Assembly: GCA_030765145.1 (NCBI GenBank)
Contig: JAVCDA010000060.1
Span: 1 to 61,693 of the forward strand
From: Candidatus Saelkia tenebricola
Lineage (GTDB): Bacteria; Omnitrophota; Gorgyraeia; Kaelpiales; Kaelpiaceae
Direction: 5' to 3'
DNA: 61,693 nt
The notes under the pieces are model-generated. The model had not been told where the DNA came from. It searched no databases and worked only from the letters and a program-made list of their open reading frames with translations. The translations under genes and the position numbers were made by a program. Positions 12,538 through 61,693 of the stretch are shown here, piece after piece. Position 1 is the first letter of the stretch; every line of letters begins with the position of its first letter.

Positions 12538-12556
12538 TTAACGTATTATTTTGATT

Positions 12557-12627
12557 TGGGGAATAGTGTAATGGTAGCACAACGGCTTTTGGAGCCGTCT
12601 GTGGAGGTTCGAGCCCTCCTTCCCCAG
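12557..12627 (+). tRNA. tRNA-Gln (anticodon UUG)
   Basis: Hand-folded cloverleaf. Acceptor TGGGGAA/TTCCCCA, D stem GTGT/GCAC, anticodon stem ACGGC/GCCGT with loop TT-TTG-GA, 4-nt variable loop, T arm GGAGG-TTCGAGC-CCTCC, discriminator G. No encoded CCA. Confidence 0.85.
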
Positions 12628-12719
12628 TACCGAATCAGGTATTATATTATAGTTTAGGAATTAATGATAAAAAGAGGAGTGTTGTTTTTAATGCGTATCA
12701 ATAGAGGTAAAGTATTATC

Positions 12720-38537: not shown

Positions 38538-38538
38538 A

Positions 38539-44433: not shown

Positions 44434-44569
44434 TTATGAATGTTGATAAAAGATTAGAGAGTTATATGATGAAAGCAAAGAAAATATGAATTATTTGTTA
44501 TTTTGGTTTAAGCAAAGTAAAACCAAAGACAATGCTTGGTTATAATACAATTTTTATATAATAGCGATA

Positions 44570-46183: not shown

Positions 46184-46311
46184 ATTTAAATATTTTTAAA
46201 TGAGATAATAATGGAACTTTTATTATTATAGTTATTTAAGATTAACATTTATCAGATTAAAGCAGGAAATAATCAAAGATATGGGGTTCATTATTTGAAG
46301 ATAGAGTTGTT

Positions 46312-46968
46312 ATGACGATTTTAATTAAGATTGGTGGAAGCCTATTTAAGAAAAGCCCTACTGTTTTATCAAAATTATGCAAAATTATCTATAAATTATC
46401 CAAAGAGTATAAAATCATTGTAATACCAGGGGGGGGAGGATTAGCTGACCATATTAGAATATTGCAACGAAAATTTGAATTTTCTGATAATAAATCTCAC
46501 TGGATGGCAATTATGGCTATGGATATTAATGGAATGCTAATTAGCGAAGAGAATAAGAATTTTGAATTAGTTAGAACAATCCCAGAGTGTAAAAGGAGCT
46601 TAAACAAAAAAAATATTCCAATATTTTTACCATATAATTTTCTTAAAAAAATAAATTCTCTTCCTGAAAATTGGGAGGTAACTTCGGATTCAATTGCATT
46701 AGTTATATCCCATTTTCTGGATACTGATTATATAATTCTTTTAAAAGATGTGAATGGGATTTATGGAAGCCTTACTAAAAAAAAGATCATTAAGGAGGTT
46801 TCTCTTTCAAAAATTAAGCATTTAAAGTCTACTTGCATAGATAGTTATCTACCAAGTTTAGTTAAAAAATATAAAAGGGAAGTTTATATTGTTTCTGGTC
46901 TATATCCTGAAAGAATTAAAAAAATATTAAAAGGTGAAAAGACCTTGTATACTAAAGTTATTTCGTGA
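46312..46968 (+). CDS. Amino-acid-kinase-fold small kinase (MfnE-like / archaeal COG2054-type)
   Basis: ILIKIGGSLF.., IIVIPGGGGLADHIR, HWMAIMAMDINGML, VTSDSIALVIS, LLKDVNGIY. It is first in a four-gene overlapping block ending with mfnB. Confidence 0.55.
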   Translation: MTILIKIGGSLFKKSPTVLSKLCKIIYKLSKEYKIIVIPGGGGLADHIRILQRKFEFSDNKSHWMAIMAMDINGMLISEENKNFELVRTIPECKRSLNKKNIPIFLPYNFLKKINSLPENWEVTSDSIALVISHFLDTDYIILLKDVNGIYGSLTKKKIIKEVSLSKIKHLKSTCIDSYLPSLVKKYKREVYIVSGLYPERIKKILKGEKTLYTKVIS

Positions 46969-47804
46969 AGTTCAATTTATTTAAATTTTATAGACTTGAT
47001 TTTTGTTTGCGTAATTTAGGATTGGGAATTATTGGAATAGTTAGTGCAGATAATTTTTTAAATTTTAAACTTTCTTTTTTAGCATTATTAAATATATTGC
47101 TTATTCAAATGCATTCCTTTTCTATGAATAATTATTTTGATTTTAAAGTATGGGGTGAGGAAAATTATATTGGAAAGTTAATAAATAAGGGGGTTAATTC
47201 ATGTTTTTGTTTATTTCTAACAATTTTTCCGCTCGTTATTTTAATGATTATAATTACAAAATATAATTTTGCTGTATTTTTACTTTTTTTATATATTATT
47301 CTTTTTTATTTATATCAAGCCCCCTCTTTAAGATTAAAGAATCATTATTTATATTCTATTATCATTAATTCCATATGTTTAGGTTCTGTTCTGTATCTGT
47401 ACCCTCATGTTTTTTTAACTCGTAAATGTGGCTTTATTGCGACATATTTTACACTGATATTTTTCTTTTATTTGGGATTCCATGAATTAGTTCATCAAAT
47501 TGCCCATTTTGGGAAAGATAAGATATATTCTTTACCTCATAAGATAGGAATGGATAGAACTGTAATAGTTGTAAAAATCTTTTTGATTATTCCTATTCTA
47601 ATTGGAATTGGAAGTTTGATTTTAAATCCTCTTAAGTATTTAATTTTTGTCTTCACAATTTTATTTTCAATGTTTAGATTGTTCAGGCTTTCAAAAATGG
47701 TACCTACTCAGAAAAACTTTCTTATACTCAGGAATACCTGGCACAAATTTTATAGCTTTCACGAAGGGGTTTTGTATATAATGGCGTTACTCTTATGGAG
47801 ATAA
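46965..47804 (+). CDS. UbiA-superfamily-like polytopic membrane protein with degenerate Asp-rich motifs
   Basis: About 8-9 TM segments. LYQAPSLRLKN matches the conserved Y-x-x-P-L-R-L-K segment of UbiA prenyltransferases. Motif 1 reads NNYFDFKVWGEEN and motif 2 reads HELVHQIAHFGKDKIYSLPHKIG. Confidence 0.45.
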   Translation: MKFNLFKFYRLDFCLRNLGLGIIGIVSADNFLNFKLSFLALLNILLIQMHSFSMNNYFDFKVWGEENYIGKLINKGVNSCFCLFLTIFPLVILMIIITKYNFAVFLLFLYIILFYLYQAPSLRLKNHYLYSIIINSICLGSVLYLYPHVFLTRKCGFIATYFTLIFFFYLGFHELVHQIAHFGKDKIYSLPHKIGMDRTVIVVKIFLIIPILIGIGSLILNPLKYLIFVFTILFSMFRLFRLSKMVPTQKNFLILRNTWHKFYSFHEGVLYIMALLLWR

Positions 47805-48529
47805 TTCCTGTTGTAGATATTAAAGGAGGAGATGTTGTTCAGGCTATAAGAGGTCAAAGAGACAAGTATCTGCCTGTGCAGAATTCAAAATTAGTGAAAT
47901 CCAGCGATCCTTTAAAAGTTGCGGAAGCGTTTATTCAGAAATTTAATTTCAAAAAATTTTATATAGCTGATCTTGATTCTATCGAAAATAAAGGGAATAA
48001 TTTTAGCGTAATAGAAAAGTTGAAAAGGGAATTGGGAATAAAAATGATGGTTGATATTGGTATAAAAGATAAAGATGATTTAGATAAAAATGTGATAAAG
48101 CATATAGATTGGTTGATATTAGGTACAGAGACATTAAGTTCCTTGGATACAGTTGATTATGTTATGAAACTGAAAAATAGCAGTAGAATAACAGCGAGTA
48201 TAGACTTAAAAGGTAGGGAATTGCAAGCTAAGTATAGAAATTTTGCAAATCCTAGGCAAGCAATTAATAAATTAAACGGATTAGGAGTTGAAAATTTTAT
48301 TATTTTAGATCTTTCATGGATTGGTACTTTGAAAGGTCCTTCTATAGCATTAAAGGAATTAATAGAAAATTTTAAAGACAAAAATTTAGTGATATTTACT
48401 GGTGGAGGTATCTCATCTGTAGATGAAGTCAAAAAGTTAAAAGAAATAGGAGTAAGCGGGGCATTAATAGGTACTGCATTCCATAGGGGGTTGATAAAAA
48501 AGGATGATATTTTTATAATAAACAGGTAA
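47795..48529 (+). CDS. HisA/HisF-like TIM barrel (MfnF-like / COG1411-type)
   Basis: IIPVVDIKGGDVVQAIRG, FYIADLDSIENKG, ILDLSWIGTLKG, FTGGGISSVDEV..L...GVSGALIGTAFH follows the HisA-type phosphate-binding pattern. Confidence 0.55.
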   Translation: MEIIPVVDIKGGDVVQAIRGQRDKYLPVQNSKLVKSSDPLKVAEAFIQKFNFKKFYIADLDSIENKGNNFSVIEKLKRELGIKMMVDIGIKDKDDLDKNVIKHIDWLILGTETLSSLDTVDYVMKLKNSSRITASIDLKGRELQAKYRNFANPRQAINKLNGLGVENFIILDLSWIGTLKGPSIALKELIENFKDKNLVIFTGGGISSVDEVKKLKEIGVSGALIGTAFHRGLIKKDDIFIINR

Positions 48530-48537
48530 AAAAGCAA

Positions 48538-49251
48538 ATGAAAGCGTTAATTACAGTTATTAACCAAGAGGAAGCAAGGTGCGTTGTAAAAGAGGGTTGT
48601 GATATTTTAGATATTAAAAATCCAGTCGAAGGTTCTTTAGGTGCAAATTATCCATGGGTTATAAAAGAAATAGTGGAAATTGTCCCTCAAGAAATAGAGA
48701 TAAGTATTGCAATCGGAGATGTGCCTAATCTACCGGGGACTGTTTCTATGGCGGTGCTAGGAGCATTGCAGTTTAAACCCGACTATATTAAAGTAGGGTT
48801 GAAAGGTACTAAAACAAAAAGTGAAGCTGTTGAATTGATGAAAAAAGTAGTGCGGACAAATAGATTATCAGGAGTAGGAGCTAAAATAGTTGCTGCTTGT
48901 TATGCAGATTATCATAAGTCTGGTTCTGTAAATCTATCGTATCTTCCAGAAATAGTTTCAGAATCCGGAGCTAATATTGCAATGATTGATACTTTGACAA
49001 AGAGAGATAAAAATCTGTTAGATTTTATTTCAAAAGATGAATTAAAAAAAGTTGTAAAAATATGTCATGAGAAAGGATTAAAAATTGCTCTAGCAGGCTC
49101 CTTGAATGAAGAACATTTAGAGATGATATATCATATGGGTGTTGATATATTTGGGGTGCGAGGTGCTGTATGTTCAGGAGGGGATAGAAAATCCGAGATG
49201 AAAGTTGAACTTGTAAGGGAATTATATAGCAATATCAGACAATTAGATTAA
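48538..49251 (+). CDS. mfnB: (5-formylfuran-3-yl)methyl phosphate synthase-like (MfnB / DUF556)
   Basis: CDILDIKNPVEGSLGANYPWVIKE, PDYIKVGL, IAMIDT, ALAGSL, DIFGVRGAVC. Positions 25/27/85/151 are D/K/K/D, the residues I recall as essential in M. jannaschii MfnB. Confidence 0.75.
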   Translation: MKALITVINQEEARCVVKEGCDILDIKNPVEGSLGANYPWVIKEIVEIVPQEIEISIAIGDVPNLPGTVSMAVLGALQFKPDYIKVGLKGTKTKSEAVELMKKVVRTNRLSGVGAKIVAACYADYHKSGSVNLSYLPEIVSESGANIAMIDTLTKRDKNLLDFISKDELKKVVKICHEKGLKIALAGSLNEEHLEMIYHMGVDIFGVRGAVCSGGDRKSEMKVELVRELYSNIRQLD

Positions 49252-49348
49252 CCCCCCGATTTTTTATTTATGTAAAGATGTTTTTGTTGAAATTAAAGTA
49301 ATATAACAAAACTTAAATATAATGTAGTTTTACATATGGTGAGATAAT

Positions 49349-51145
49349 ATGGCTGGAATTGCAGGGGTAGTTTCCAAGAATACAATAAAGGAACCAGCAA
49401 TAGTTGAATCAATGCTAAGTATCCTGAAACATAGGGGGGCTTGTTGTAAGGGTGCTTTTATTAATGATAAAGTTTGTATTGGTTCCCAATCGATTGAGAG
49501 AAACGTGTTTTATAATAAAGGTAGAACGATATGCCTTTTTGTTGATGGAATAATATACAATAGCGTTGAATTAAAAAAGATGATTCCTGTCCAAAGTCTT
49601 TACTCAGACTGCGAAGAAGCGATATTAATTAATTTATATGAAAAATATGGAGTAAAAGGTTTTGAGCTTATTAACGGGGATTTTGTTTTAGTTATCTGGG
49701 ATTCTATTAAGAAGAAGCTGGTGATGGCAAAATATCTCAGTATCGATAAAAATATTTATTATTATTTAAGTAAAGATAGTTTAATTTTTTCCTCAGAAAT
49801 AAAAGCCTTATTAATTCATCCTGAAGTTAAAAAAGACCTAGATATTGAGTCCATAAATAATTTTCTTACTTTTAGACATATACCTTCGCCGTATACTATA
49901 TTCAAAAATATTGAAAGGTTGAATCCAGCCTCTGCAATCATTTATGATAATAATCAATTGCAAAAAGAGAAACTTTGTTATTTTAAAATAAAACCAATTT
50001 ATAATAAATCGGAAGATTATTTACTTAAAGAGTTGTTTATCAATTTAGAAGATGCAGTATTAAAGAGGTTGAATAAAGTAAAAGAGGCTGGTCTTTTTCT
50101 TTCGGGAGGGTTAGATTCTTCAACGTTACTTTATTTTCTCAGCCAAAATTTTAAAGATCCTGTAAAAACATATACTATATCGTTATTGAGAGACGGAATT
50201 TTTGCAAAAGGAGTTTCAGAATATTTTAATTCTCAGCATATAGAACGTGAAGTTTCTGCAAAAGATTTGATAAGTATTCTTCCAAAAGCATTATGGCATT
50301 TCGAGTATCCTGTTAATGGGCCTGATTCTTTCTTATATTATTTACCTAAGATTTCAAAAGGTCAGAAACATATTTTTTGGGGACGGGGAGCAGAAGAAGT
50401 GTTCTATGGTCGAGATGATTACGTAGCTTTAAATGTAATTATGAAATTTAGACAAGTTATTCCTCGAAAATTATGGGAGTTATTCTCACGGTTTTCTCCG
50501 CAAGTCCCAAACAAAAACAAATTGTATAAATTTTTTAATATAATTTCGGCTAAGGATGCTTATGATATTTATATTGCTTTTAGGGAAGTTTTAACGGAAA
50601 TTGAAAAAAAAGAACTTTTAAATAAAGAGATATTTAAATTTAATCCTAAATCAAGATTGATACCTTATAAAAAATTCGCTAGAGATATTCTTCAACAATA
50701 TAGCTACCTGGTTCTCGTAAATGGTTTTTGGAGCGATACATTTTTGAATATGGGCCAGGAAGTTCTGGATCCTTTTATGGATAAAGATTTTATCAGTTAT
50801 TGTTATAGCATTCCTTCTGAATTAAAAGTTCGTAATGGTCAACCAAGATATTTGTTAAAAAAAATGATGCGTAATAAACTCCCCGAGTTTATTTTAAAGA
50901 GGAAGAAAGATAATTGGCATGCACAAACTGAGTTTGAGATTAATAAAGAAAAAGACAAATATTATCATATTATAAATAGGCTCAGAAAAAGAGGTATTTT
51001 AAAGTTCGATATATCTAATTTTTTACAGAAAAATAAATTTAAATCAGATGAAAAATTCTGGGCATTATTAAGTTTAGAAATTTTATTAGAAATATTTTTG
51101 GATCAAAACGGAGCTGAAGAACCTCCTGCCATTGATAAATTCTAG
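49349..51145 (+). CDS. Asparagine synthetase B-like adenylating enzyme lacking the glutaminase nucleophile
   Basis: The N-terminus is MAGIAG (canonical MCGI), HRGACC replaces HRGPD, and VDGIIYN replaces NGEIYN. The PP-loop LSGGLDSS is intact at 50102-50122. Confidence 0.7.
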   Translation: MAGIAGVVSKNTIKEPAIVESMLSILKHRGACCKGAFINDKVCIGSQSIERNVFYNKGRTICLFVDGIIYNSVELKKMIPVQSLYSDCEEAILINLYEKYGVKGFELINGDFVLVIWDSIKKKLVMAKYLSIDKNIYYYLSKDSLIFSSEIKALLIHPEVKKDLDIESINNFLTFRHIPSPYTIFKNIERLNPASAIIYDNNQLQKEKLCYFKIKPIYNKSEDYLLKELFINLEDAVLKRLNKVKEAGLFLSGGLDSSTLLYFLSQNFKDPVKTYTISLLRDGIFAKGVSEYFNSQHIEREVSAKDLISILPKALWHFEYPVNGPDSFLYYLPKISKGQKHIFWGRGAEEVFYGRDDYVALNVIMKFRQVIPRKLWELFSRFSPQVPNKNKLYKFFNIISAKDAYDIYIAFREVLTEIEKKELLNKEIFKFNPKSRLIPYKKFARDILQQYSYLVLVNGFWSDTFLNMGQEVLDPFMDKDFISYCYSIPSELKVRNGQPRYLLKKMMRNKLPEFILKRKKDNWHAQTEFEINKEKDKYYHIINRLRKRGILKFDISNFLQKNKFKSDEKFWALLSLEILLEIFLDQNGAEEPPAIDKF

Positions 51146-51185
51146 ATGTTTACTTTTTAATCTTACTGGATTTAAATAAAAAATT

Positions 51186-52523
51186 TTATATACAGTTAAA
51201 AATAAATTTATTTTGATTCATATTGTCTTTTTGTTTGATTATTCCTATACTATGTGTCCAAAAAGGAAGATAGTTCAAATCCGTGGTTATTTGATATAGA
51301 GATATATAAATCAAATTTTTATCTAAGTTTTTATAATAGAATTTTGTTGAATTTAAAAAAAATCTCAAGAAGTCCATTGTAAAGTAAGTATATTTTAAAA
51401 GATTCCAGATGTTGCCGTTTTCAAGTGCAGAATTTATTTTTTTGAGGGTTTTTAGGTCGATTACTTCTTTAATTAATTTATCTTCTATTTTAAACGGAAC
51501 GGTGATAATTTGAGATCCGGTTGATATGTTTTTTCTGAATTTGATTAGAAATTTATGCAGATTTATTTTTAACTTTTCGAACTCAAAAAAATAACCTTCT
51601 TTGCAGGTTGTGTTTTTAGATTCGACTATCTTTTTTATTATATCGGAATAAGTAAAATATCTTTTTTGAGGTATTTCTAGTCTTCCAAATGGGCTTAAAG
51701 GAACCAAAAACAGTCCTTTTATAAAATCATTATTTGTTATTAAAAATGGTATCATTTTTTCAATCTCATTTTCATTTATATTGTCCATTAATACAAACGC
51801 TAAAAAAGTAAATAGTTTATTATTTTTTAGATTTTGTAAAGCTTTTGTTTTGAGGTTGTAACTATTCTCGCTTTCAAGCTTTTGATATGTGTGTTGAAAG
51901 CCGTTGAAAGATAGGAATACTTCTTTTAATCCTGCGGTTTTTAGTCTTTTAGTATATTCTGAGTCAGCTAATTTTAGACCATTTGTAAATAGTGTAGGTA
52001 TATTTCCGGAATCCTTTACTAGTTTAATCATTTCAGGTAGATCATTTCTTACGGTAGGTTCTAATCCAAAAAACATAATTTTTTTGTTTTTACCTGCTTT
52101 GGAAATTATGTATTTAATATCATCCATATTCATCTCTTCTGGTTTAAGAGTGTCTTGAGCAAAACATACTTTGCATTGAGCATTGCATTTATTTGTTGTC
52201 ATTACATAAATCATATTGCTGTAAGTTTTTATAAATTTCCAGTCACTTTCTTTAGGTTCGAAAGCTCTACTAAAAGTAGAAAAAGCTGTTTTTTTTCGCG
52301 TTAGCATCATTTTTTTAAAAAAATGATGACTGTTTTCGAACAGTGTTTCATACCAGATGCCATCGATTTTTTTTCTTATAAAAATTTTATTTTTATTTTC
52401 TATTATTTTTATCTCGGTTTTTTTAAGCCAGGAGAATATGTGGGTTATATCAGACCCGGATATTCTATCTGTTTTAAAGGATATTGGTGATTCTTTAAGA
52501 GGTATGATTTTTTGATCCTGCAT
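51186..52523 (-). CDS. Radical SAM protein, paralog of the 58238/59788 family but without N-terminal zinc ribbon
   Basis: TTNKCNAQCKVCF (CX3CX2C), FFGLEPTVRNDLPEMIKLVKDSGNIPTLFTNGLKLAD, FLSFNGF. The same block order is seen in 58238..59632. Its start overlaps the upstream rSAM stop by 29 nt. Confidence 0.8.
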   Translation of the reverse strand: MQDQKIIPLKESPISFKTDRISGSDITHIFSWLKKTEIKIIENKNKIFIRKKIDGIWYETLFENSHHFFKKMMLTRKKTAFSTFSRAFEPKESDWKFIKTYSNMIYVMTTNKCNAQCKVCFAQDTLKPEEMNMDDIKYIISKAGKNKKIMFFGLEPTVRNDLPEMIKLVKDSGNIPTLFTNGLKLADSEYTKRLKTAGLKEVFLSFNGFQHTYQKLESENSYNLKTKALQNLKNNKLFTFLAFVLMDNINENEIEKMIPFLITNNDFIKGLFLVPLSPFGRLEIPQKRYFTYSDIIKKIVESKNTTCKEGYFFEFEKLKINLHKFLIKFRKNISTGSQIITVPFKIEDKLIKEVIDLKTLKKINSALENGNIWNLLKYTYFTMDFLRFFLNSTKFYYKNLDKNLIYISLYQITTDLNYLPFWTHSIGIIKQKDNMNQNKFIFNCI

Positions 52524-53634
52524 TGTAATTTTGTTTTAAAATATTTTTAGTGAATGCCATACGAAATCTTGATAGATTTGAAAAGATGTTTTCATTAGAA
52601 AGATAACCTTCACCCATCATGCAGTTCTTTTTGCAATACTTTCTGCTAAATCTGGATTCAACATAAGGAGGTGATTCCCATATATCTCTTGGAGTATTTA
52701 GCTTTAGGTTGCCCAAGCTATGGGGGTATATGTCGTTGGCTAGAAAACAAGGTAGAATTTCTCCATTTGCAGATATGCATAATTGATCATATGGGATATT
52801 ACAATATATGTTTTTAAAATCCAGTTCTGAAGATAAAAAGTATTTTCTAATTAACTCTAAGTTTTGCAGAGAGTTTAAAATAGGATAACCTTGTTTTTTT
52901 AGGTTAACAAGTTCGTTGATTATATTGTCAATTGTGTCTTTTTCTTTTGGCCATACCTCATCTTTTATTTTTTCATTTTTTATGAATTCTGTTCTTACTT
53001 CTACAAATCTTATCCCATTGAGCCTGTTTTCATGGGTGAATTTGACTAGTTCAGGTAATTCTTTTAAATTGTAACTATTTATTACTGTATTTAAAGTGAT
53101 GTTTATATTTTTATTTTTTAGTGATTTGACTGCAAACATTACTCTCTCAAATTGTCCTTTTTGCCTTAATGTATCATGGGTTTCTTGCTGTATACCCTCT
53201 AATGATAAGATGATTTTTGATAAGCGAGAATCAATGATATTTTTAATTTTTATTTCGTCAAGCAGCGAACAATTGGTTGTGATATCAGTAATTATGTCAA
53301 TATTATTTGCGAATTTAATTATTTCAAAGATATCATCTCTTAAAAATGGTTCACCTCCACATAAATTTAAATAAAAGATACCTAGCCATTTTTTAAGTTC
53401 GAGAATTATTTTTTTTAGCTCTTTTGTGGTAAGTTCATCGAATGTTTTTTCATGGGTAAGGCTGCAGTATTTACAATTTGAATTGCAGGCATTTGTTAGA
53501 TAAAGTAGTACAATTATTGGTTTGCAAAAATTAGTATCAAAACGTTTATCTATATTTCTAAACAAGCAATGGATGAGACCGTTTAGTGAAAATTTGATAT
53601 ATTTAGTATCCATGGTTGATTTTTGTTGAAGCAA
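52495..53634 (-). CDS. Radical SAM protein with C-terminal SPASM/twitch-like Cys motif
   Basis: LTNACNSNCKYCS (CX3CX2C), LCGGEPFLRDD, and C-terminal CNIPYDQLCISANGEILPC (CX12GX4C) plus CKKNC. Confidence 0.8.
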   Translation of the reverse strand: MLQQKSTMDTKYIKFSLNGLIHCLFRNIDKRFDTNFCKPIIVLLYLTNACNSNCKYCSLTHEKTFDELTTKELKKIILELKKWLGIFYLNLCGGEPFLRDDIFEIIKFANNIDIITDITTNCSLLDEIKIKNIIDSRLSKIILSLEGIQQETHDTLRQKGQFERVMFAVKSLKNKNINITLNTVINSYNLKELPELVKFTHENRLNGIRFVEVRTEFIKNEKIKDEVWPKEKDTIDNIINELVNLKKQGYPILNSLQNLELIRKYFLSSELDFKNIYCNIPYDQLCISANGEILPCFLANDIYPHSLGNLKLNTPRDIWESPPYVESRFSRKYCKKNCMMGEGYLSNENIFSNLSRFRMAFTKNILKQNYNAGSKNHTS

Positions 53635-53767
53635 GTAATATTATAAGGTCGAAAGTTTAATTAATAAACTAAAATATGTAGAATTCTATAGGTTTGGGGA
53701 GATTATCGATACATCAATAGAATGAATGTAATTATAATGACTAAGAAAAAATATTGTTTTCAAAGTT

Positions 53768-54466
53768 ATGATTTTACTTGGAATTGACACTTCATCAGAT
53801 TGGCTGCATGTTGTAGCAGGGGAGGATGATAAGGTTATAAACTCTATCTCTATATGTAGGCCGAAACAGCATGTTTCTATATTGCATAGTAGTATAGATG
53901 AGGTTTTAAAAAAAACAGGTTTTAATATTAAGGATGTTGATGTTTTTGTCGTTGTAAAAGGACCTGGTTCTTTTACGGGGATTAGGATTGCAGTTACAAC
54001 TGTTAAGGGATTTGCATATGCTTTGGATAAAAGAGTTGTTTCTCTATCCAGTTTAGATTTATTGGCTCAAAATGCTTTGGACTCTGAAGAACGGTTGATT
54101 GTGCCTTTAATAGATGCCAAGAGGGGACAGGTATATGCTGCTTATTACACCAATGATAATAATATAGCCATAGGTGTTAAAGATAGTATGCTTGTTAAAA
54201 TAGGAGATGTTTTAGATGCAATTGATGAGCCTGTAGTTCTATTAGGAGATGGAGTGGAAGCTTATAAAAGAGAGATTGAAGAGATTAGAGTTCATAAAAA
54301 AATATCTATTTTAAATGAGGATTATTGGATATTAAGGAATGAAAATATTATAAAGTTGGGATATAGGAAATATCAGGATAAAGGTGGTGAGAATATATTT
54401 GATTTGAAGCCACTTTACCTTTATCCTAAAGAGTGCACCATTAGAAAAAACTTACCTCAGAGATAA
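53768..54466 (+). CDS. tsaB: tRNA t6A37 biosynthesis protein TsaB
   Basis: ILLGIDTSSD.., VVVKGPGSFTGIRIAVTTVKGFA, DAKRGQVY. Confidence 0.85.
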   Translation: MILLGIDTSSDWLHVVAGEDDKVINSISICRPKQHVSILHSSIDEVLKKTGFNIKDVDVFVVVKGPGSFTGIRIAVTTVKGFAYALDKRVVSLSSLDLLAQNALDSEERLIVPLIDAKRGQVYAAYYTNDNNIAIGVKDSMLVKIGDVLDAIDEPVVLLGDGVEAYKREIEEIRVHKKISILNEDYWILRNENIIKLGYRKYQDKGGENIFDLKPLYLYPKECTIRKNLPQR

Positions 54467-54467
54467 T

Positions 54468-55625
54468 ATGGAAATAGAGATTAGTAATAAGATATCTTCT
54501 CGCTGTTGGATTGAAGTTGATCTTGATGTAATAAGAGAAAATGCGTTAAGTCTTAGAAGTTTTCTAAAATCTGATACAGGTATTATTGCAGTAGTAAAAA
54601 GCAATGCCTATGAGCACGGTATAAATGAAGTTGGAGCTATTTTATCCGATATTGTAGATATGTTTGCGGTCTCGAGTCTTCAGGAAGCTGTTGTTTTAAG
54701 AGAAGCAGGAGTTGAAAATCCAGTTCTGTTTTTTTCTAACCCATTGAATGAAGATGATTTAGATTTGATATTCCAATATGATATTTTACCGGTTATAAAT
54801 GATATAAGTTTTTTGGAAATTTTTGAAAATAAAGCCAGGCAGTTAGGGGTAAGAAAAGCTGTTGATATAAAAATTGATACTGGTATGTCTAGATTAGGTA
54901 TAGCTTGGGATGAAAAATCTAATCTACTGAATTGTCTTAATAAAATTGAATATTTAGACATTCATGGTTGTTTTACACATTTTGCCCATGCTGAAGATAT
55001 TCAATTTACAAGATTACAGAGCGAAAGATTCCAAGACATAACAAATTTGCTAAAAGATAATGGATATGATTTTAAATGCCATGCTGCCAATAGTTCTACT
55101 ACCTTAAGGATGCCTTCAGTCTGGTTTGATTATGTCCGGCCTGGGCTTATACTTTATGGGATTTATCCCGACTTAGGGGTAAAAAATAGAATTAGTCTCA
55201 AGCAGGCATTTTCTTTTAAAACACGTCTTATGCAAGTAAAAGATGTAAAAAAAGGAAGTTTCATAGGTTATTGCTGTACTTATAAAGCTCCATCTGATAT
55301 GAAGATAGGAATTATTCCAGTCGGATATAATCAGGGTATTCCTTGGAGTTTTTCTAATAAGGGATTGGTTCTTTTAAGAGGAAAGCGTGTGCCGATTTTG
55401 GGTCGGGTTTCTATGGATCAGATAATAATAAATCTCAGAGAAATTGAAAGTCCTAAAATAGCGGAAGAGGTTGTAATTACTGGGATTCAAGGTACTGAAG
55501 AGATAAAAATAGAAGAGTTGGCAGAGTTATCTAATACAATTCCTTATGAAATCATATGTGGTTTGGGAAAGGTTCAGAATAAAATTTATTTAAAAAAAGA
55601 TAATTTGTTATCTCAAGGAGGATAA
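54468..55625 (+). CDS. alr: Alanine racemase
   Basis: [11 protein letters not shown] (PLP Lys), [32 protein letters not shown]. Confidence 0.9.
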
Positions 55626-55626
55626 T

Positions 55627-57279
55627 ATGAGAAGTGATAAAGTGAAAAAGGGAGTTGAGCGGGCTCCGCACAGGGCGTTGCTTTATGCAACAGGAATTTC
55701 TAAAACAGATTGGAATAAACCGTTTATAGGTTTTGTATCAAGCTTTACAGATCTTATTCCTGGTCATGTGAATATGAGGGTTCTTGAAAGAGCGGTGGAA
55801 CAGGGTATATTTGCTGGGGGTGGGGTAGGTTTTTACTTTAGTGTTCCCGGTATTTGTGATGGCATAGCTATGGGGCATAGCGGAATGAGTTATTCATTGC
55901 CTTCAAGAGAATTGATAGCTGATATGATTGAAACAGTTGTGAATGCGCATCAGCTTGATGGATTAGTTTGCCTTACGGATTGTGATAAGATAACTCCAGG
56001 TATGCTTATGGCCTGTAGCCGTCTTAATGTTCCATCAATTGTTGTTACAGCAGGGCCTATGCTGGCAGGAAATTATAAAGGTAAGAAACTTTCTTTAGTT
56101 CGCGATACATTTGAGGCAGTGGGGCAGTATAAGGCAGGAAAAATCACTAAGAGTGAGCTGGATGAACTTGAATGTCGTGCCTGTCCCGGTGCAGGGTCTT
56201 GTCAGGGAATGTATACGGCTAATACAATGGCATGTCTAACTGAAACATTAGGTATCTCTCTTTCTGGTTGTGCCACAGCTCCTGCTGTATCGGCAGATAA
56301 GGTGCGTATTGCAAGAGAAAGTGGTAAGCGTATTGTTACGCTTGTAAAAAATAATATCAAGCCGCGAGATATTCTTAACAAAAATGCATTTAAGAACGCA
56401 ATTGCGGTTGACATGGCACTGGGCGGTTCAACTAATACAGTGCTGCATTTAAAAGCTATAGCACATGAGGCAAAAGTAGATTTGCCACTTGATCTCTTTG
56501 ATCGGATTAGTAAAAAAACACCGAATATTTGCAAATTAAGGCCTGCTGGGGATTATATGATGGAAGATTTAGATAAGGCGGGTGGAATTCCAGCCGTTTT
56601 AAAGAGGTTAAGGCCTTTATTGGTGAATAACAATACTGTATCAGGTATGAAAATATACGATATAGCAAAGAATGCCAATATTTATGATCAAGATGTTATT
56701 AGATCTTTGAATAAATCTTATTTTAAAGAAGGTGGTATTGCAATTCTTTATGGTAATCTTGCAATGGAGGGAGCTGTTGTAAAACAAAGTGCAGTATCTA
56801 AAAAGACACTCAAATTTAAAGGCAAGGCATGTGTATTTAATAGTGAAGAGGAATCAATCAAAGCTATTTTAGGAGGCAAAATTAAAAAGAATTCTGTAAT
56901 AGTTATTCGATATGAGGGGCCTAAAGGCGGTCCTGGTATGCGTGAGATGTTAGCACCGACTTCTGCAGTTGCTGGTATGGGGCTTATTGAAGACGTAGCG
57001 CTTATAACAGATGGTAGGTTTTCAGGCGGAACCCGTGGTCCTTGTATAGGGCATGTTTCTCCTGAAGCTCAAGAAGGCGGGCTTATTGGGTACGTTAGTA
57101 ACGGAGATATTATTGAGATAGATATTCCTAAACGTAAATTACATTTGGTCATAGATAAAAAAACTTTAGAAAAAAGAAAAGCATCGTATAAACACCCTAA
57201 ATCTAAAGTAAAAGAAGGTTGGCTTTTAAGGTATTCTAAACTTGTAACCTCAGCTAGTACTGGAGCAGTATTTAAGTGA
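55627..57279 (+). CDS. ilvD: Dihydroxy-acid dehydratase
   Basis: [68 protein letters not shown]. Confidence 0.95.
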
Positions 57280-58236
57280 ATGATTGAAGAAATCACAAAG
57301 ATAATCTATTCTTATCCGTATAATCCTTATCGCAAATATAGAATAATTCCCAAAGAGCAAAGGCAAAGATTATTGTCGAAAAAAATAGAAGGATTAAGAA
57401 ACAAAAAAAATGTTTGGTTTATAGAGGAAAAAAGGAAAAACCAAATTATAGGTTTAATATCACTGGAGAAATTAAATTGGGATACAAAGCATTTTGGAAT
57501 TCCGATGGGGAGCATAGAATATCTTTTAACAAAAATGGATTTAGATTACAAGGAGGATTTAGAAGCAAAAGATAAACTGGTAAAGGAAGTTTTAAGGTTA
57601 ACAAAAAAACATAGAATTAAACATCTTACTTGTAGGATAGATTGTGCTGACCATGCCGCCATATGTGCTTTACAGCAAAATGGGTTTTATCTAATGGATA
57701 CGATACTAACACATATATTTACTCAGAAACATAATATTCCACAAACAAAAGACTTATATAAGGTAAGAGAAGCAAAAAAAGAAGATTTGCCGATATTGAT
57801 GGATATAGCCAGAAGTAGTTTTAGGAATTCCAGGTTTCATCATGAACCTTATTTATCATTAACAAGATCAGATGAAGTTTATGCCGAGTGGATAAAAAAT
57901 GCACTTTATAAAAAGGTGGCAGGACTTGTTTTAGTAGCAGAAAAATCTAAATATCCGATAGGTTTTTTTGCTTGTAAAGAAGATGAAGAAATGTTCTCAT
58001 ACATAGGTGTGAGATGTTTAAGCCGTGGGTTAGCTGCATGCCTACAAGAGGAAAAGGGAGCATATATAAGTTTACTAAAAAATGCAATATGTATTGGAAA
58101 GAAAGTTATGGAAGTGGATATGGGGGAATTTATGACTCAAATTTACAATTATTCGGTAATAAGGACTTATCAGAAATTTGGTATGGATTTGGTAAAAATC
58201 AGGCATGTATTTCATAAAATAATCAAGGAGATATAG
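57280..58236 (+). CDS. GNAT-like acyltransferase (WecD-like two-lobed architecture), substrate unknown
   Basis: 318 aa. LNWDTKHFGIPMG resembles the N-terminal lobe of WecD-type acetyltransferases. The C-terminal half (FRNSRFHHEPY..VAE....IGFFACK) has GNAT-like spacing. The ATG abuts the ilvD TGA, and its own stop is 1 nt from the next gene. Confidence 0.4.
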   Translation: MIEEITKIIYSYPYNPYRKYRIIPKEQRQRLLSKKIEGLRNKKNVWFIEEKRKNQIIGLISLEKLNWDTKHFGIPMGSIEYLLTKMDLDYKEDLEAKDKLVKEVLRLTKKHRIKHLTCRIDCADHAAICALQQNGFYLMDTILTHIFTQKHNIPQTKDLYKVREAKKEDLPILMDIARSSFRNSRFHHEPYLSLTRSDEVYAEWIKNALYKKVAGLVLVAEKSKYPIGFFACKEDEEMFSYIGVRCLSRGLAACLQEEKGAYISLLKNAICIGKKVMEVDMGEFMTQIYNYSVIRTYQKFGMDLVKIRHVFHKIIKEI

Positions 58237-58728
58237 AATGGATAAACTATTAATGTTTGAAGTTGAAAATGTAATGGAAACGTTAGTAAAGACCGGAATT
58301 TCATTCTGCCCGGTGTGTGAAAGAACAATTTCTGCTCAGTTAATTAACCGGCAAGGCTATGTATATGAACAGAAGGAATGCTCCTGGTGTAATGAAATGT
58401 TTGAGTTGTTGTTAAAGAAAGCTTCTTTTACCCATCGTTGTGGGTTCGACAAAATGCCTAATAATTGGCCGCAACTTAATGTTCAAATTGGAGATATTCC
58501 TGGTGAAGAAAGTGATATAAAAAACTTCTCAGAGGTTTTATATGTTCTGTTAAATTTGACTCAAAGATGCAATTCTTTTTGCCGGTTTTGTTTCGAAGCT
58601 AATGAAGGTCCTCGGCCGGATATGGATATAGAGTTCATCAAAACTACTTTAAAGAAATTCAGAAATAAAATAATAGTTCTCTTTGGCGGTGAGCCGACAA
58701 TGAGGGAAGATTTGCCAGAGATCATCCA
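58225..58728 (+). repeat. Direct repeat copy 1 (RBS + first 491 nt of rSAM copy A)
   Basis: Hand alignment to 61190..61693: no indels and about 39 mismatches in the 491 coding nt, including the shared AAGGAGATATA RBS. Confidence 0.85.
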
Positions 58729-59632
58729 GATGGTCTTAAAATCTAAGAACATTCCACTTTTATATACTAATGGAGTAAGATTAGCAGATAGAAGTTATTT
58801 AAGGTTGCTTAAACAATCAGGTGTAAGAGTGGTATGTTTATCATTGGATGCAGTTGATTTTGAAGTCTATAAAAATATAAGAAGAACTTCAGAAGAAGTA
58901 ATTAAAGCAAAATTTAAGGCATTAGAAAATTTAAGAAAAGAAAAAACCCAGGTTGTTCTACAAACAACGATTATTAAAGGAGTTAATGATTTTCATATCC
59001 AAGAAATTGTAGAATATATGAAAATAAATCCCTATATTTATGGATTATGGCTAAGGCCTCTATACCTATTGGGGAAAGAACCTTATGCAGATTTTGACAG
59101 AACACATCTCATGTCGCGTGATGAAGTAGCAGATTTAGTAGAAGAAAATTTAAGATTGGATAAAGGTTATTTTGATTTATGGAATGATTTAAAAAGAAAT
59201 TTATTGAATTATATTTTGAAGTTAATGCCAAACATAAAGATATCTGCAATCGAATTGGATAAAATTTATATGCTAAGAGAAAATGGGCGATTTATTCCTT
59301 TACTAGATAAAAAAGAGTTAGAATATATCAATCATGCTCTTGTTTCTAACCGGTTTTGGGCTTTGCTTAAGCCATCTTTAATGGTTAAAATTTTACCTTA
59401 TATTATACGAGGAATTGTTGGTTTAAGTGGTATACGTTTCAATTTTATAGAAAAGTATATGTATAAAAAAGGTATCTGTAAATTTTCTATTCGAATGTTG
59501 GATGGGGTTATGAGATATCCGTACTCATTTTTTCCTGCCTCCATGGATGGTCCGGTGTATATAGAGGTATTGCCAACTGAGGATGAGAATAACCCCTATA
59601 AAATAATTGCAAAACGTAAAGAATCCACATAG
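58238..59632 (+). CDS. Radical SAM protein with N-terminal 4-Cys zinc-ribbon/rubredoxin-like knuckle (MJ0619/Tes-like family, copy A)
   Basis: C24-x2-C27 ... C48-x2-C51 (FCPVCERTISAQLINRQGYVYEQKECSWC). CX3CX2C at C111/C115/C118 (RCNSFCRFC). LFGGEPTMREDLPEII, LYTNGVRLAD, LSLDAVD, GVNDFHIQEIVEY. Confidence 0.8.
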   Translation: MDKLLMFEVENVMETLVKTGISFCPVCERTISAQLINRQGYVYEQKECSWCNEMFELLLKKASFTHRCGFDKMPNNWPQLNVQIGDIPGEESDIKNFSEVLYVLLNLTQRCNSFCRFCFEANEGPRPDMDIEFIKTTLKKFRNKIIVLFGGEPTMREDLPEIIQMVLKSKNIPLLYTNGVRLADRSYLRLLKQSGVRVVCLSLDAVDFEVYKNIRRTSEEVIKAKFKALENLRKEKTQVVLQTTIIKGVNDFHIQEIVEYMKINPYIYGLWLRPLYLLGKEPYADFDRTHLMSRDEVADLVEENLRLDKGYFDLWNDLKRNLLNYILKLMPNIKISAIELDKIYMLRENGRFIPLLDKKELEYINHALVSNRFWALLKPSLMVKILPYIIRGIVGLSGIRFNFIEKYMYKKGICKFSIRMLDGVMRYPYSFFPASMDGPVYIEVLPTEDENNPYKIIAKRKEST

Positions 59633-59787
59633 AGCTATGAGAAGTCGAGGGCTGGTTTTTTCTATAGTAAAAGATATATCAAAGATTTGGTATGAATTTG
59701 GTCAGAATGGAACATATATTCCATAAATGGGTTAATTAATTAAAGTTGTGTTACATTTATATAGATATATAATAAAAGGAGGAATAT

Positions 59788-61164
59788 ATGAAAGAATCAA
59801 ATTTAGTAGAGCTTAATTCTGAAATCATATCTATGCCAGAAACTGTATCGGTAGAAGAGCTGGTGGTAGAAGAAGGTTTATCTCCTTGTCCATCTTGTGA
59901 AAAACTTGTGCCCGCAAAAACAGTTGTAAGGGATGGGTATACATACATAGTTAAACATTGTGTATTTGAAAGAAAATTTTTCAATGTTTTCTTAGGAAAA
60001 GGCTGGTATGACAAAAGCTATAAAGATATTTCACTTCCCAATAGTTGGCCGCGTTGCGAGGTTCACATTGGTCAAAAAGAAATGAGTGAGAAAAATGTTC
60101 TGAATATAGGAGAGGTTAGTTTTGTTTTACTGACTATTACCAAAAAGTGTAATATACATTGTAAAATTTGTTACGACAAACTTCTCGCTGATAGAATTGA
60201 TATGAGTTTATCGCATATTGAAGATAAGCTTAGATTTTTTAAAAATAGAACAGTTATTTTATTCGGCGGGGAACCTACAGTTAGGGAAGATTTACCAGAA
60301 ATTATTAAATTGGTAAAGTTATCAAATAATTATCCTGTGCTTTTTACAAATGGTATTAAGCTTACAAGTAGAGATTACCTAAACTGTTTAATAAAAAATG
60401 GGTTATGGGGTGTATGTTTATCCTTTGATGGTTTTGACGCTCATATTTATGCGGAGCTTCGCGGTTTAGACGAAAAAGTTTATCAGCAGAAATTAGAAGC
60501 ACTTGAAAATTTGAAAAAAACAAATATTCCTGTAGTTATTCATTCTACAATCGTTAAAGAGGTTAATGAACATGAAGTTGCAAAGATTTTAGACTACGCA
60601 GCCCAAAATGATTTTGTGTCAGCAGTGTGGTTTAGAACACTTTATCTGTCCGGTGAAGAAAAATTGTCAAATTTTGATAAAACTAATTTAATTTCTGAAA
60701 AAGAAATGGTAAATATGATATGCAGTCATTTAGACATTGATAAAGAATATTTCTATCTTTGGGATGAGGTAAAGCGTGGTCTTGTTAAATGGATTACAAA
60801 GCGATTCCCGAAATTTAAAATTTCTGTGTTTAGGCTAGGTAGAATTTATTTAATTAGGAAAAAGGGCAAATTCCATCCTGTTTTAACGATTCGACAGTTA
60901 AAAGATATTAAAGTTGCGTTAGAAACCAATAGGTATTTTATTTTATTGAGTCCTTGTTTACTGAAGTGGTTTGTTAGATTGGCTGTCAATGGTTTTAGTA
61001 TTGCAAGGATTGAGAGAACCTTCTATAAGGAAGCAATGGTATTTAAAATTTGCCTGGAACAGCTTGGTCCTTATCCTAATATTATGTTTTCGAATCAACA
61101 TCCTATTACTTTGGTGGAATATAATCGTGGCAGGTTTTTTGCAGCTCAGAGCTACATAGATTAA
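59788..61164 (+). CDS. Radical SAM protein, divergent paralog of copy A (3-Cys N-terminal knuckle)
   Basis: CPSCEKLVPAKTVVRDGYTYIVKHC, KKCNIHCKIC, LFGGEPTVREDLPEIIKLV, LFTNGIKLTS, LSFDGFD. SD AAAGGAGG upstream. Confidence 0.8.
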   Translation: MKESNLVELNSEIISMPETVSVEELVVEEGLSPCPSCEKLVPAKTVVRDGYTYIVKHCVFERKFFNVFLGKGWYDKSYKDISLPNSWPRCEVHIGQKEMSEKNVLNIGEVSFVLLTITKKCNIHCKICYDKLLADRIDMSLSHIEDKLRFFKNRTVILFGGEPTVREDLPEIIKLVKLSNNYPVLFTNGIKLTSRDYLNCLIKNGLWGVCLSFDGFDAHIYAELRGLDEKVYQQKLEALENLKKTNIPVVIHSTIVKEVNEHEVAKILDYAAQNDFVSAVWFRTLYLSGEEKLSNFDKTNLISEKEMVNMICSHLDIDKEYFYLWDEVKRGLVKWITKRFPKFKISVFRLGRIYLIRKKGKFHPVLTIRQLKDIKVALETNRYFILLSPCLLKWFVRLAVNGFSIARIERTFYKEAMVFKICLEQLGPYPNIMFSNQHPITLVEYNRGRFFAAQSYID

Positions 61165-61189
61165 TATAATAGTTGCCAAATATTAATTT

Positions 61190-61693
61190 AAGGAGATATA
61201 AAATGGATAAATCATTAATGTTTGAAGTTGAAAATGTAATGGAAACGTTAGTAAAGACCGGGATTTCATTCTGTCCGGTATGCGAAAGGACAATTGCTGC
61301 TCAATTAGTTAACCGGAAAGGATACATATATGAACAGAAGGAATGTTCCTGGTGTAATGAAAGATTCGAGTTATTGTTGGCGAAAGCTTCTCTTACTTAT
61401 CGTCGTGGGTTTGACAAAATTCCTAATAATTGGCCGCAACTTAATGTTAAAATTGGAGATATTCCTGGTGAAGAAAGTGATATAAAAAACTTCTCAGAGG
61501 TTTTATATGTTCTGTTAAATTTGACTCAAAGATGCAATTCTTTTTGCCGGTTTTGCTTTGAAGCTAATGAAGGTCCTCGGCCAGATATGGATATAGAGTT
61601 CATAAAAACTACTTTAAAGAAATTCAGAAATAAAATAATAGTTCTCTTTGGCGGTGAGCCGACGATGAGAGAAGATTTACCAGAAATAATACA
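61190..61693 (+). repeat. Direct repeat copy 2 (RBS + first 491 nt of rSAM duplicate), offset 2965 nt from copy 1
   Basis: Same alignment as above. It contains a 106-nt perfectly identical stretch spanning the radical SAM Cys motif. Confidence 0.85.
61203..61693 (+). CDS. Radical SAM protein, near-identical duplicate of copy A (3' end outside the window)
   Basis: The frame is open to the window edge. The translation MDKSLMFEVENVMETLVKTGISFCPVCERTIAAQLVNRKGYIYEQKECSWCNERF...RCNSFCRFCFE...LFGGEPTMREDLPEII has 12 aa differences from copy A over 163 aa. It is not in the ORF track because no stop is reached. Confidence 0.8.
   Translation, partial: MDKSLMFEVENVMETLVKTGISFCPVCERTIAAQLVNRKGYIYEQKECSWCNERFELLLAKASLTYRRGFDKIPNNWPQLNVKIGDIPGEESDIKNFSEVLYVLLNLTQRCNSFCRFCFEANEGPRPDMDIEFIKTTLKKFRNKIIVLFGGEPTMREDLPEII

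Follow-up and report, generated by a model that had tools for sequence, protein, structure and literature searches.

A horizontally acquired island in Candidatus Saelkia tenebricola joins methanofuran-type furan genes to a divergent UbiA-like membrane enzyme and radical SAM genes

What might a bacterium do with the early enzymes of methanofuran synthesis when they are encoded beside a UbiA-like membrane enzyme and a set of radical SAM proteins? This question is raised by the final part of contig JAVCDA010000060.1 of Candidatus Saelkia tenebricola (Omnitrophota; assembly GCA_030765145.1); the window analysed here is the entire 61,693-nt contig, and reading stops at position 61693. Until now, furan synthesis of the MfnB type has been linked with the one-carbon (C1) cofactors of methanogens and methylotrophs; here the early methanofuran enzymes are combined with a UbiA-fold membrane enzyme, a transferase of the GT-C type and radical SAM enzymes for tailoring. 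Our best explanation, to which we give about an even chance, is that the region holds two accessory modules, the first of which is an island that would build a furan-methyl diphosphate, pass its furan to a membrane acceptor by means of the UbiA-like enzyme and deliver the product to the envelope. The product of the island is probably envelope-bound. The pathway itself is uncharacterised but assembled from known enzyme superfamilies, among which the UbiA subfamily is new; as the initial annotation of this DNA had already remarked, no characterised pathway shows this combination, and literature searches found no description of an MfnB/MfnE/HisA-F/UbiA-like cluster.

The features of the locus are the following, with TesA to TesD denoting four Tes/MJ0619-like radical SAM paralogs, AF2 standing for AlphaFold2 and bits for profile scores.

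44434-53767, no strand: inserted island from the PMT_2 gene to the SPASM radical SAM gene (9.3 kb, GC 0.283)
44570-46183, + strand: PMT_2/GT39-like polytopic membrane protein of the GT-C type (Pfam PF13231, 45.6 bits, gathering cutoff 26.1)
46312-46968, + strand: MfnE-like kinase of the amino-acid-kinase fold (NCBIfam NF040622, Pfam AA_kinase)
46965-47804, + strand: divergent UbiA-superfamily membrane enzyme (Pfam UbiA below threshold, AF2 model and Foldseek)
47795-48529, + strand: HisA/HisF-related TIM-barrel protein of the TIGR00734 type (TIGR00734, PF00977)
48538-49251, + strand: MfnB homolog, putative (5-formylfuran-3-yl)methyl phosphate (4-HFC-P) synthase (PF04476, 247.5 bits)
49349-51145, + strand: AsnB-like ATP-dependent amide ligase without the N-terminal nucleophile Cys (Asn_synthase, GATase_7)
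51186-52523, - strand: TesA, Tes/MJ0619-like radical SAM protein (CX3CX2C; no metal-ribbon Cys)
52495-53634, - strand: SPASM-domain radical SAM enzyme (Radical_SAM 82.3 bits, SPASM 38.6 bits)
53768-54466, 54468-55625 and 55627-57279, + strand: core genes tsaB, alr and ilvD, respectively (Pfam)
57280-58236, + strand: GNAT/WecD-like (dTDP-fucosamine acetyltransferase-like) acyltransferase (NF008212, Acetyltransf_3, PDB 2FS5)
58238-59632, + strand: TesB, Tes/MJ0619-like radical SAM protein (PF23545 and PF04055 matches)
59788-61164, + strand: TesC, Tes/MJ0619-like radical SAM protein (AF2 model, Foldseek)
61203-61693, + strand: TesD, Tes/MJ0619-like radical SAM protein truncated by the contig end (near-copy of TesB)

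Every gene that the initial annotation had listed was recovered where it had been placed, by an open reading frame (ORF) map and family scans. The GT39-like membrane protein described as lying just upstream of the furan module is the PMT_2 protein, and the two halves of the locus are indeed separated by tsaB, alr and ilvD only.

How did the first half come to lie at this position? Two contigs of metagenome-assembled genomes (MAGs) labelled Planctomycetia, found by an Alr scan and sharing 67-68% Alr identity with the window (L126 and L127; L numbers denote compared loci throughout), were collinear with it gene by gene from about 33 kb of the window up to alr/ilvD. The shared order runs TonB receptor, methionyl-tRNA synthetase (MetRS), TatD-radical SAM protein, CAAX protease, MtnA, ThiL, TsaE, TsaB and Alr, and L126 additionally reaches the start of IlvD. 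In both relatives the gap between tsaE and tsaB is 5 nt, and in the window 9.3 kb (44434-53767) are found there. This segment has a GC content of 0.283; upstream of 44434 the value for the window is 0.346, and the genes there average 0.347 with a standard deviation of 0.024. Since tsaE abuts tsaB in two relatives and the GC content is deviantly low, the 9.3 kb at 44434-53767 are an insertion between these two genes, a horizontally acquired island. The genes tsaB, alr and ilvD are native neighbours of tsaE, collinear with both relatives, and stand outside the accessory system. The initial annotation had taken the locus to be vertically embedded rather than recently acquired, which is wrong for the first half given the adjacency of tsaE and tsaB in the two relatives; its remark that no transposase, integrase or tRNA-flanked boundary is visible agrees with tRNA and repeat scans, which gave no integrase, tRNA or flanking direct repeat near the locus and no recombinase in the window, the single tRNA of the contig being tRNA-Gln at 12556-12628. 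The nearest homologs of the island genes are labelled Omnitrophota. In other genomes, a resolvase (L016, 8405-9145) and a large serine recombinase (L125, 54-1691) lie directly upstream of a related furan/UbiA cluster, which hints at how the cluster moves.

Which furan chemistry could the island encode? The MfnB homolog matched the MJ1099 structure 4RC1 with 212.8 bits, and the residues that we take to be the four essential ones, D25, K27, K85 and D151 (the exact numbers of three of them being our assumption), were aligned and conserved between the two proteins, with a chain numbering offset of 7. In MfnB the Schiff base arises at Lys27, and the essential residues comprise two Lys and two Asp (PMC6604932). 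The score against the NCBIfam equivalog was 269 bits, under the cutoff of 341, and the nearest relatives form an Omnitrophota/DPANN-type group with 53-65% identity, followed by methanogens with 47-51%. An MfnB homolog outside C1 metabolism has also been recorded in an insect-associated genomic island of Burkholderiaceae (PMC9088363). The MfnE-like kinase matched NF040622 (MfnE) over its full length with 177.5 bits, under the 300-bit cutoff, Pfam AA_kinase with E = 6.5e-21 and PDB entry 7QRH with E = 9e-34, an entry for which a literature search found no functional information.

The HisA/F-like protein fits TIGR00734 best among families (146 bits, cutoff 179.85), followed by PF00977 (129 bits), and reached HisA/PriA structures with E values of only about 1e-17. 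In Methylobacterium extorquens the counterparts of MfnB, MfnE and MfnF are Orf22, Orf21 and Orf9, respectively, and the PF00977 member is Orf17, a protein that methylofuran synthesis requires for a step still unknown; its homolog in Methanocaldococcus jannaschii is MJ0703 (PMC8141765). A reading of the HisA/F-like gene as MfnF was therefore rejected, as MfnF matches Orf9 (PMC8141765), and from its family membership we liken the gene to the Orf17/MJ0703-type genes. Two archaeal loci, L004 and L007, likewise have a homolog beside mfnB and mfnE. Our literature search found no function for TIGR00734/MJ0703. A pairing of the HisA/F-like and AsnB-like proteins as a sugar amidation system of the WbuX/Y/Z type was considered and rejected, WbuZ/AglZ giving about 35 bits against 146 for TIGR00734.

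Among the Mfn-type genes of the window lies the gene of the UbiA-like protein, which overlaps them. Its score against Pfam UbiA (PF01040) is 28.6 bits, under the gathering cutoff of 34.2, and a profile of its family matched no PDB sequence. The AF2 model, on the other hand, has a predicted local distance difference test score (pLDDT) of 93.8, and Foldseek superposed it on AfUbiA (4TQ3/4TQ4) and DGGGP synthase (6M31/7BPU) with template modelling (TM) scores of 0.70-0.78 and on a membrane phosphoribosyltransferase (8J8J) with 0.68; the nine-helix UbiA membrane fold is confirmed in the predicted model. The all-helical fold is thus common to the window protein and the UbiA superfamily (UbiA/MenA, DGGGP synthase and the decaprenyl-phosphate phosphoribosyltransferase of the 8J8J type, TM 0.68-0.78), whereas the motifs diverge. 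Motif 1 is N[ND]xxD, reduced from NDxxDxxxD, and motif 2 is ExxHQxxHxxxD in place of the ExxKxxxDxxxD of more canonical relatives, so that motif 1 and, in motif 2, the final Asp are retained, and the diphosphate-binding motifs are altered but partly kept. Judged by the two Asp-rich motifs and the Pfam gathering score, the window protein falls outside the recognised UbiA membership. The subfamily is also tiny: a scan of GTDB genomes with the single protein found nothing, an alignment-based scan found 4 loci among 185,579 species genomes, and larger collections gave 41 representatives at E<=1e-30 among 1.84e9 proteins and 30 clusters among 5.8 billion sequences.

Is this combination of genes a peculiarity of one contig? 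Context look-ups of MfnB and UbiA-like relatives, two collection scans and local phmmer screens gave, after collapsing near-identical copies, 25 distinct UbiA-like loci, 19 of which span at least 9 kb and served for counting. MfnE-like, HisA/F-like and MfnB genes were each present in 16 of the 19, and all three occurred together with the UbiA-like gene in 16 of them; a PMT/PMT_2-like GT-C protein was found in 11, a SPASM-type and a B12-type radical SAM gene in 8 loci each. Of the association between mfnB-like, Cys-less asnB-like and MJ0619-like radical SAM genes that the initial annotation had suspected, a good part stands: mfnB-like genes travel with the UbiA-like core, AsnB-like genes accompany it in about half of the loci (~10/19) and radical SAM genes of some type in most, but the MJ0619-like subfamily is present in only 4 of the 19. 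The lack of co-occurrence that the initial annotation had named as its refutation was not observed.

The four-gene core (MfnE-like, UbiA-like, HisA/F-like and MfnB) occurs in Omnitrophota (L008, L016), in an archaeon whose contigs carry S19e, L37ae and eIF2-alpha genes (L009/L024), in Nanoanaerosalina (L012/L017) and Aenigmarchaeota (L124), in L011, L019, L025-L031 and L125, and on many unbinned contigs. A PMT/PMT_2 gene stands beside it in L008, L030, L124 and L125 by Pfam and in L026 by phmmer, and envelope or glycan genes (GT2, GT4, Wzx-like, epimerase, heptose) surround the cluster in L009, L012, L014, L030 and L124. On the 690-kb contig L030 the AsnB-like, SPASM and TesA genes follow one another in the same order as in the window, beside the core, PMT_2 and a HAD phosphatase. 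The radical SAM complement differs by locus, comprising HAD plus a 335-residue radical SAM protein, or B12-type, SPASM or Tes-like enzymes; since these types and the presence of a PMT-like protein vary, the tailoring, perhaps also the final product, varies too. MfnB loci of Bathyarchaeia and Nitrososphaeria contain MfnE-like and HisA/F-like genes, and the UbiA-like gene is absent there. The island thus belongs to a small conserved cluster family of Omnitrophota, DPANN archaea and a few others, a family that crosses the boundary between bacteria and archaea.

Two of these loci merit separate mention. In L030 (5558-8058, compared with 51186-53634 of the window) the orthologs of TesA and of the SPASM protein scored 605 and 545 bits, respectively, and UbiA-like, MfnB and MfnE-like proteins scored only 148-225 bits; the TesA/SPASM pair may have been exchanged on its own, apart from the furan genes of the core. 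Within the cluster of L124 (6112-8155), genes for a triose-phosphate isomerase and a flavin mononucleotide-dependent dehydrogenase/IMPDH-like protein were found, which could supply glyceraldehyde-3-phosphate and oxidise a furan aldehyde, respectively; the same locus has two AsnB-like genes, a decarboxylase and a pyridoxal-phosphate enzyme.

What might the AsnB-like ligase of the island do? It scored 138.7 bits with Asn_synthase and 57 bits with GATase_7, and its N-terminus reads MAGIAG, with Ala at the place of the nucleophile Cys, followed by an intact PP-loop, SGGLDS. Orthologs of L011, L019 and L030 all start with M[AS]GI and retain SGGxDS, so that the missing nucleophile characterises the orthogroup. 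The protein is not a glutamine-dependent asparagine synthetase B by its residues or by TIGR01536 (222 bits, cutoff 267), and its best PDB match is the hydroxyamidotransferase 7YLZ. With the Cys-less AsnB-like ligases (beta-lactam synthetase, lasso cyclase and TsnB9, 7YLZ) it has in common the two-domain architecture, a preserved PP-loop of the ATP-pyrophosphatase and an N-terminal nucleophile that is missing or altered, but it reaches the cutoff of none of these ligase families, and its partners are a furan/UbiA core and not a beta-lactam, lasso or hydroxamate pathway. The SPASM radical SAM enzyme, whose gene overlaps the start of TesA by 29 nt, reached no NCBIfam family at its cutoff.

From these families the following route can be proposed. 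The MfnB homolog would join two molecules of glyceraldehyde-3-phosphate to the furan 4-HFC-P, and the HisA/F-like protein, likened to Orf17/MJ0703, would carry out an early step required by furan cofactors. The MfnE-like kinase would then turn furan-methyl phosphate into furan-methyl diphosphate, which as a carbocation-prone donor would resemble a prenyl diphosphate. In the methanofuran pathway, the kinase step yields the diphosphate F1-PP, and MfnF couples F1-PP to its acceptor (PMC8141765). No MfnF, MfnA, MfnC or MfnD family assignment was obtained at 44-61.7 kb or in the Pfam-annotated related loci. Because MfnF is absent and a UbiA-fold gene is always present, often overlapping Mfn-type genes, we propose that the UbiA-like enzyme takes the place of MfnF, ionising the diphosphate and joining the furan to a polyprenyl phosphate or a lipid; alternatively, it might prenylate the furan. 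UbiA enzymes ionise a diphosphate from a carbon able to stabilise the cation, and in the DPPR-synthase branch of the superfamily a non-prenyl donor, phosphoribosyl pyrophosphate, is used with polyprenyl phosphate, the product feeding GT-C transferases. The membrane phosphoribosyltransferase 8J8J sets the precedent for a non-prenyl diphosphate donor in a protein similar to our model. Thereafter, amide formation would fall to the Cys-less AsnB-like ligase, with nitrogen from a donor that is not glutamine, and unactivated C-H positions of the hydrophobic part would be modified by the SPASM and Tes-like radical SAM enzymes, TesC being modelled with the fold of GDGT-MAS, which binds lipid in a tunnel. 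Finally, the PMT_2 protein would use the lipid-linked product on the outer side of the membrane to decorate an envelope acceptor. A lipid-linked furan unit destined for the envelope fits the recurrence of PMT/PMT_2 beside the core and surroundings rich in glycan genes.

Several points weigh against this route. The MfnB step is drawn from sequence, and the steps after it from the chemistry of the enzyme families and from neighbouring genes; the scores of all three Mfn-type proteins lie under their NCBIfam equivalog cutoffs, and the island has neither an aminotransferase (MfnC) nor an oxidoreductase. The first Asp of the second Asp-rich motif is lost in the UbiA-like protein, which may bind a different substrate or metal. 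A PMT-like protein is missing from 8 of the 19 loci, and the radical SAM types differ among them. As for the island, a deletion in L126 and L127 is formally possible instead of an insertion, a reading disfavoured because of the low GC of the segment, and the contigs of these relatives end at alr/ilvD, so that the comparison covers the first half and not the second module.

A bolder form of the proposal is that the island makes a membrane lipid, or a lipid-linked decoration of the envelope, that bears furan and belongs to a new class, by means of a UbiA-fold 'furfuryl transferase' whose non-isoprenoid donor, furan-methyl diphosphate, would come from recruited methanofuran enzymes, and that this system has been exchanged between bacteria (Omnitrophota) and archaea (DPANN); we regard this as a tentative possibility. 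If true, it would add a new furan-containing envelope component and a new type of donor for the UbiA superfamily, and would point to a role for the orphan HisA/F-like proteins of the Orf17/MJ0703 type, with a tractable setting for their function in furan-cofactor synthesis.

Does the second half of the locus act in the same pathway? It has been suggested by the initial annotation that the two halves form one system, in which case the furan-lipid of the first half would be the substrate of the GNAT-like enzyme and of the TesB/C/D array. Several observations speak for it: TesA within the island is a paralog of TesB/C/D, being 33-35% identical to TesB and TesC; MJ0619-type radical SAM genes accompany the UbiA-like gene in the window, L024, L030 and L040, three of these four also having furan genes (those of L024 and L040 are more distant, and L030 has the TesA ortholog near the core); both modules accompany PMT_2-type GT-C proteins in relatives; and three core genes only part the halves. 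However, tsaB-alr-ilvD is part of a native tsaE-tsaB-alr-ilvD block, and the adjacency therefore reflects the landing site of the island, and a screen of the 24 other UbiA-like loci yielded no GNAT homolog. In L002, a GNAT homolog (164 bits) is followed by a radical SAM gene, an ABC transporter, a TesC-like radical SAM gene (285 bits), PMT_2 and GT2 with no furan gene within 15 kb, and L135 and L136 have TesC-like genes with PMT_2 and SPASM or B12 radical SAM genes; across L002, L135 and L136 no furan gene lies within 15-20 kb of the TesC-like genes. Unity of the two halves is thus not supported, given that the GNAT and Tes-like module occurs without furan genes in L002, and we consider a single pathway rather unlikely.

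The junction at which the second half had been described as translationally welded to ilvD is real, the TGA stop directly abutting the ATG of the GNAT gene, but gives no sign of a functional link: the tsaB/alr and alr/ilvD junctions are also just 1 nt apart, and in a genome this compact a junction as tight as that of its neighbours is typical. The GNAT/WecD-like protein itself matched NF008212 with 62 bits (cutoff 219), Acetyltransf_3 with 25.5 bits and PDB 2FS5 with E = 1e-4. We conclude that module 2, which runs from 57280 to the end of the contig, probably stands apart from module 1 as a related module for an envelope glycolipid or for lipid tailoring.

Could the first half simply encode an ordinary methanofuran or methylofuran pathway for a soluble C1 carrier that serves formyl transfer, with the UbiA-like, AsnB-like, radical SAM and PMT_2 genes as unrelated neighbours? 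There are likenesses: the MfnB homolog has the catalytic Asp/Lys set and 47-51% identity to MfnB of methanogens, the MfnE-like kinase has the amino-acid-kinase fold, and the HisA/F-related protein resembles Orf17, on which methylofuran synthesis depends genetically. Yet neither MfnF, MfnA, MfnC and MfnD nor a formylmethanofuran dehydrogenase or Fhc gene was found in the island or among the annotated ORFs of the 61.7-kb window, formyl-transfer enzymes are not nearby, and the UbiA-like gene is interleaved with the Mfn-type genes, overlaps them and co-occurs with them in 16 of the 19 loci. The context is one of envelope and glycan genes, and the hosts, Omnitrophota and DPANN archaea (Nanoanaerosalina, Aenigmarchaeota), are not the methanogens and methylotrophs in which these cofactors are made. 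To our knowledge, DPANN archaea are not known for methanofuran-dependent C1 metabolism. We therefore hold this alternative to be improbable, and a pathway directed at the membrane and envelope remains our preferred reading of the furan genes.

What, then, are the four Tes-like paralogs? All carry the radical SAM motif CX3CX2C; a ribbon motif CX2CX20CX2C is found in TesB and TesD, appears as CX2CX20CX2E in TesC and is absent in TesA. The AF2 model of TesC (pLDDT 82.8) gave GDGT-MAS (7TOM/7TOL) as top Foldseek match over about 450 columns with TM scores of 0.62/0.58 and E = 2e-22, MoaA being far behind, and TesB matched 7TOL by sequence over the ribbon and the radical SAM core only (E = 1.8e-23). 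Tes, GDGT-MAS (MJ0619), TrsS and the window proteins have in common an N-terminal rubredoxin-like ribbon (PF23545), a radical SAM core and a helical C-terminal domain, with a fold match over the full length. The closest named families, TrsS (NF045646) and Tes (NF045702), gave 129-139 and 113-116 bits, respectively, against cutoffs of 490 and 450 (TesA: 129 and 114 bits), and a literature search found no function for TrsS. The TesB/C subfamily is very rare: among the species genomes it has one close relative, in an Omnitrophota MAG, which is the nearest homolog of TesC (43% identical), and an exact-protein look-up of TesC gave no other contig.

It is tempting to see in these paralogs bacterial tetraether synthases like Tes/GDGT-MAS, which join lipids tail to tail, as GDGT-MAS is by far the best structural match and as bacterial Tes homologs have been proposed as candidates for the synthesis of brGDGTs, tetraethers of the branched glycerol dialkyl glycerol type (PMC11868695). 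GDGT-MAS, however, has a rubredoxin site and two auxiliary [4Fe-4S] clusters, both of which it needs: an N-terminal one bound by C73, C77, C80 and a His, and one in the C-terminal part that has a role in catalysis (PMC9433317). In the Tes-like paralogs no Cys is aligned with C73, C77 or C80, and just 1-3 Cys occur in the C-terminal 180 residues; they are 40-60 residues shorter than Tes/GDGT-MAS and 22-23% identical to them, with scores far below the Tes and TrsS cutoffs. Moreover, window-type genes form paralog arrays beside GT-C proteins, and relatives lie near PMT_2, glycosyltransferases, carbamoyltransferases and ABC transporters, not near lipid-synthesis genes. Because the ligands for both auxiliary clusters are missing, the paralogs are best classed as fold relatives of GDGT-MAS and not as tetraether synthases, a function that we think quite unlikely here. 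Short Tes homologs without auxiliary clusters should accordingly not be counted as brGDGT synthase candidates in metagenome surveys. In two Altiarchaeales MAGs (L052, 7222-12708; L054, 4886-11317), 3 or 4 MJ0619-family paralogs were found together with B12-type radical SAM genes and a large PMT-like protein; these paralogs are rich in C-terminal Cys, unlike those of the window.

The number of paralogs is in part the result of a repeat. All four radical SAM paralogs reported by the initial annotation are present, but the fourth, TesD, is merely a tandem copy of TesB, with 92.6% protein and 91.5% DNA identity, including 25 nt upstream. The repeat has a period of 2965 nt, with stretches at 58225-58728 and 61190-61693, and the contig ends inside it. 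The TesB-TesC unit has therefore undergone a recent tandem duplication whose second copy is cut by the contig end, and the assembly probably broke inside it.

Lasso cyclases also have no N-terminal Cys. That the AsnB-like, SPASM and Tes-like proteins instead mature a ribosomally synthesised and post-translationally modified peptide (lasso- or sactipeptide-like), unrelated to the furan genes, is suggested by this shared lack and by matches of the AsnB-like protein to the lasso-cyclase model NF033535 (142.7 bits) and of the SPASM protein to several peptide-maturase models (90-100 bits), but is highly improbable given that these scores are far under the cutoffs (525-650; 525 for NF033535), that no lasso B-protein or protease was found, that island gaps of 40-135 nt are too small for a precursor gene and held no small ORF seen to be conserved, and that in the loci compared the AsnB-like gene goes with the furan/UbiA core.

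Further radical SAM content of the window seems to be of another nature. The initial annotation had counted a TatD-radical SAM fusion with the locus; the fusion is real (38479-39915), but it passes the cutoff of the TatD-associated radical SAM family TIGR04038 (206.2 bits, cutoff 129.7) and is conserved in the syntenic relatives L126 and L127, and thus it is a known pair of the core genome and was rejected as a member of the locus. Its listed GTG start overlaps the end of MetRS by 59 nt (38479-38537); in the relatives the gene begins right after MetRS, and the start in the window is probably an internal Met near 38540. Promoter and terminator scans of the window gave no more matches than chance would and were left out of account. 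A DUF362 gene with a 4Fe-4S ferredoxin domain (40971-42080) has no counterpart in the otherwise collinear relatives, and is a second, single-gene insertion or deletion difference. A GspD/PilQ-type secretin (2754-4649), BamA (19191-21476) and the TonB-dependent receptor are marks of a diderm cell, and the host looks like a low-GC diderm bacterium of the Planctomycetes-Verrucomicrobia-Chlamydiae (PVC) group.

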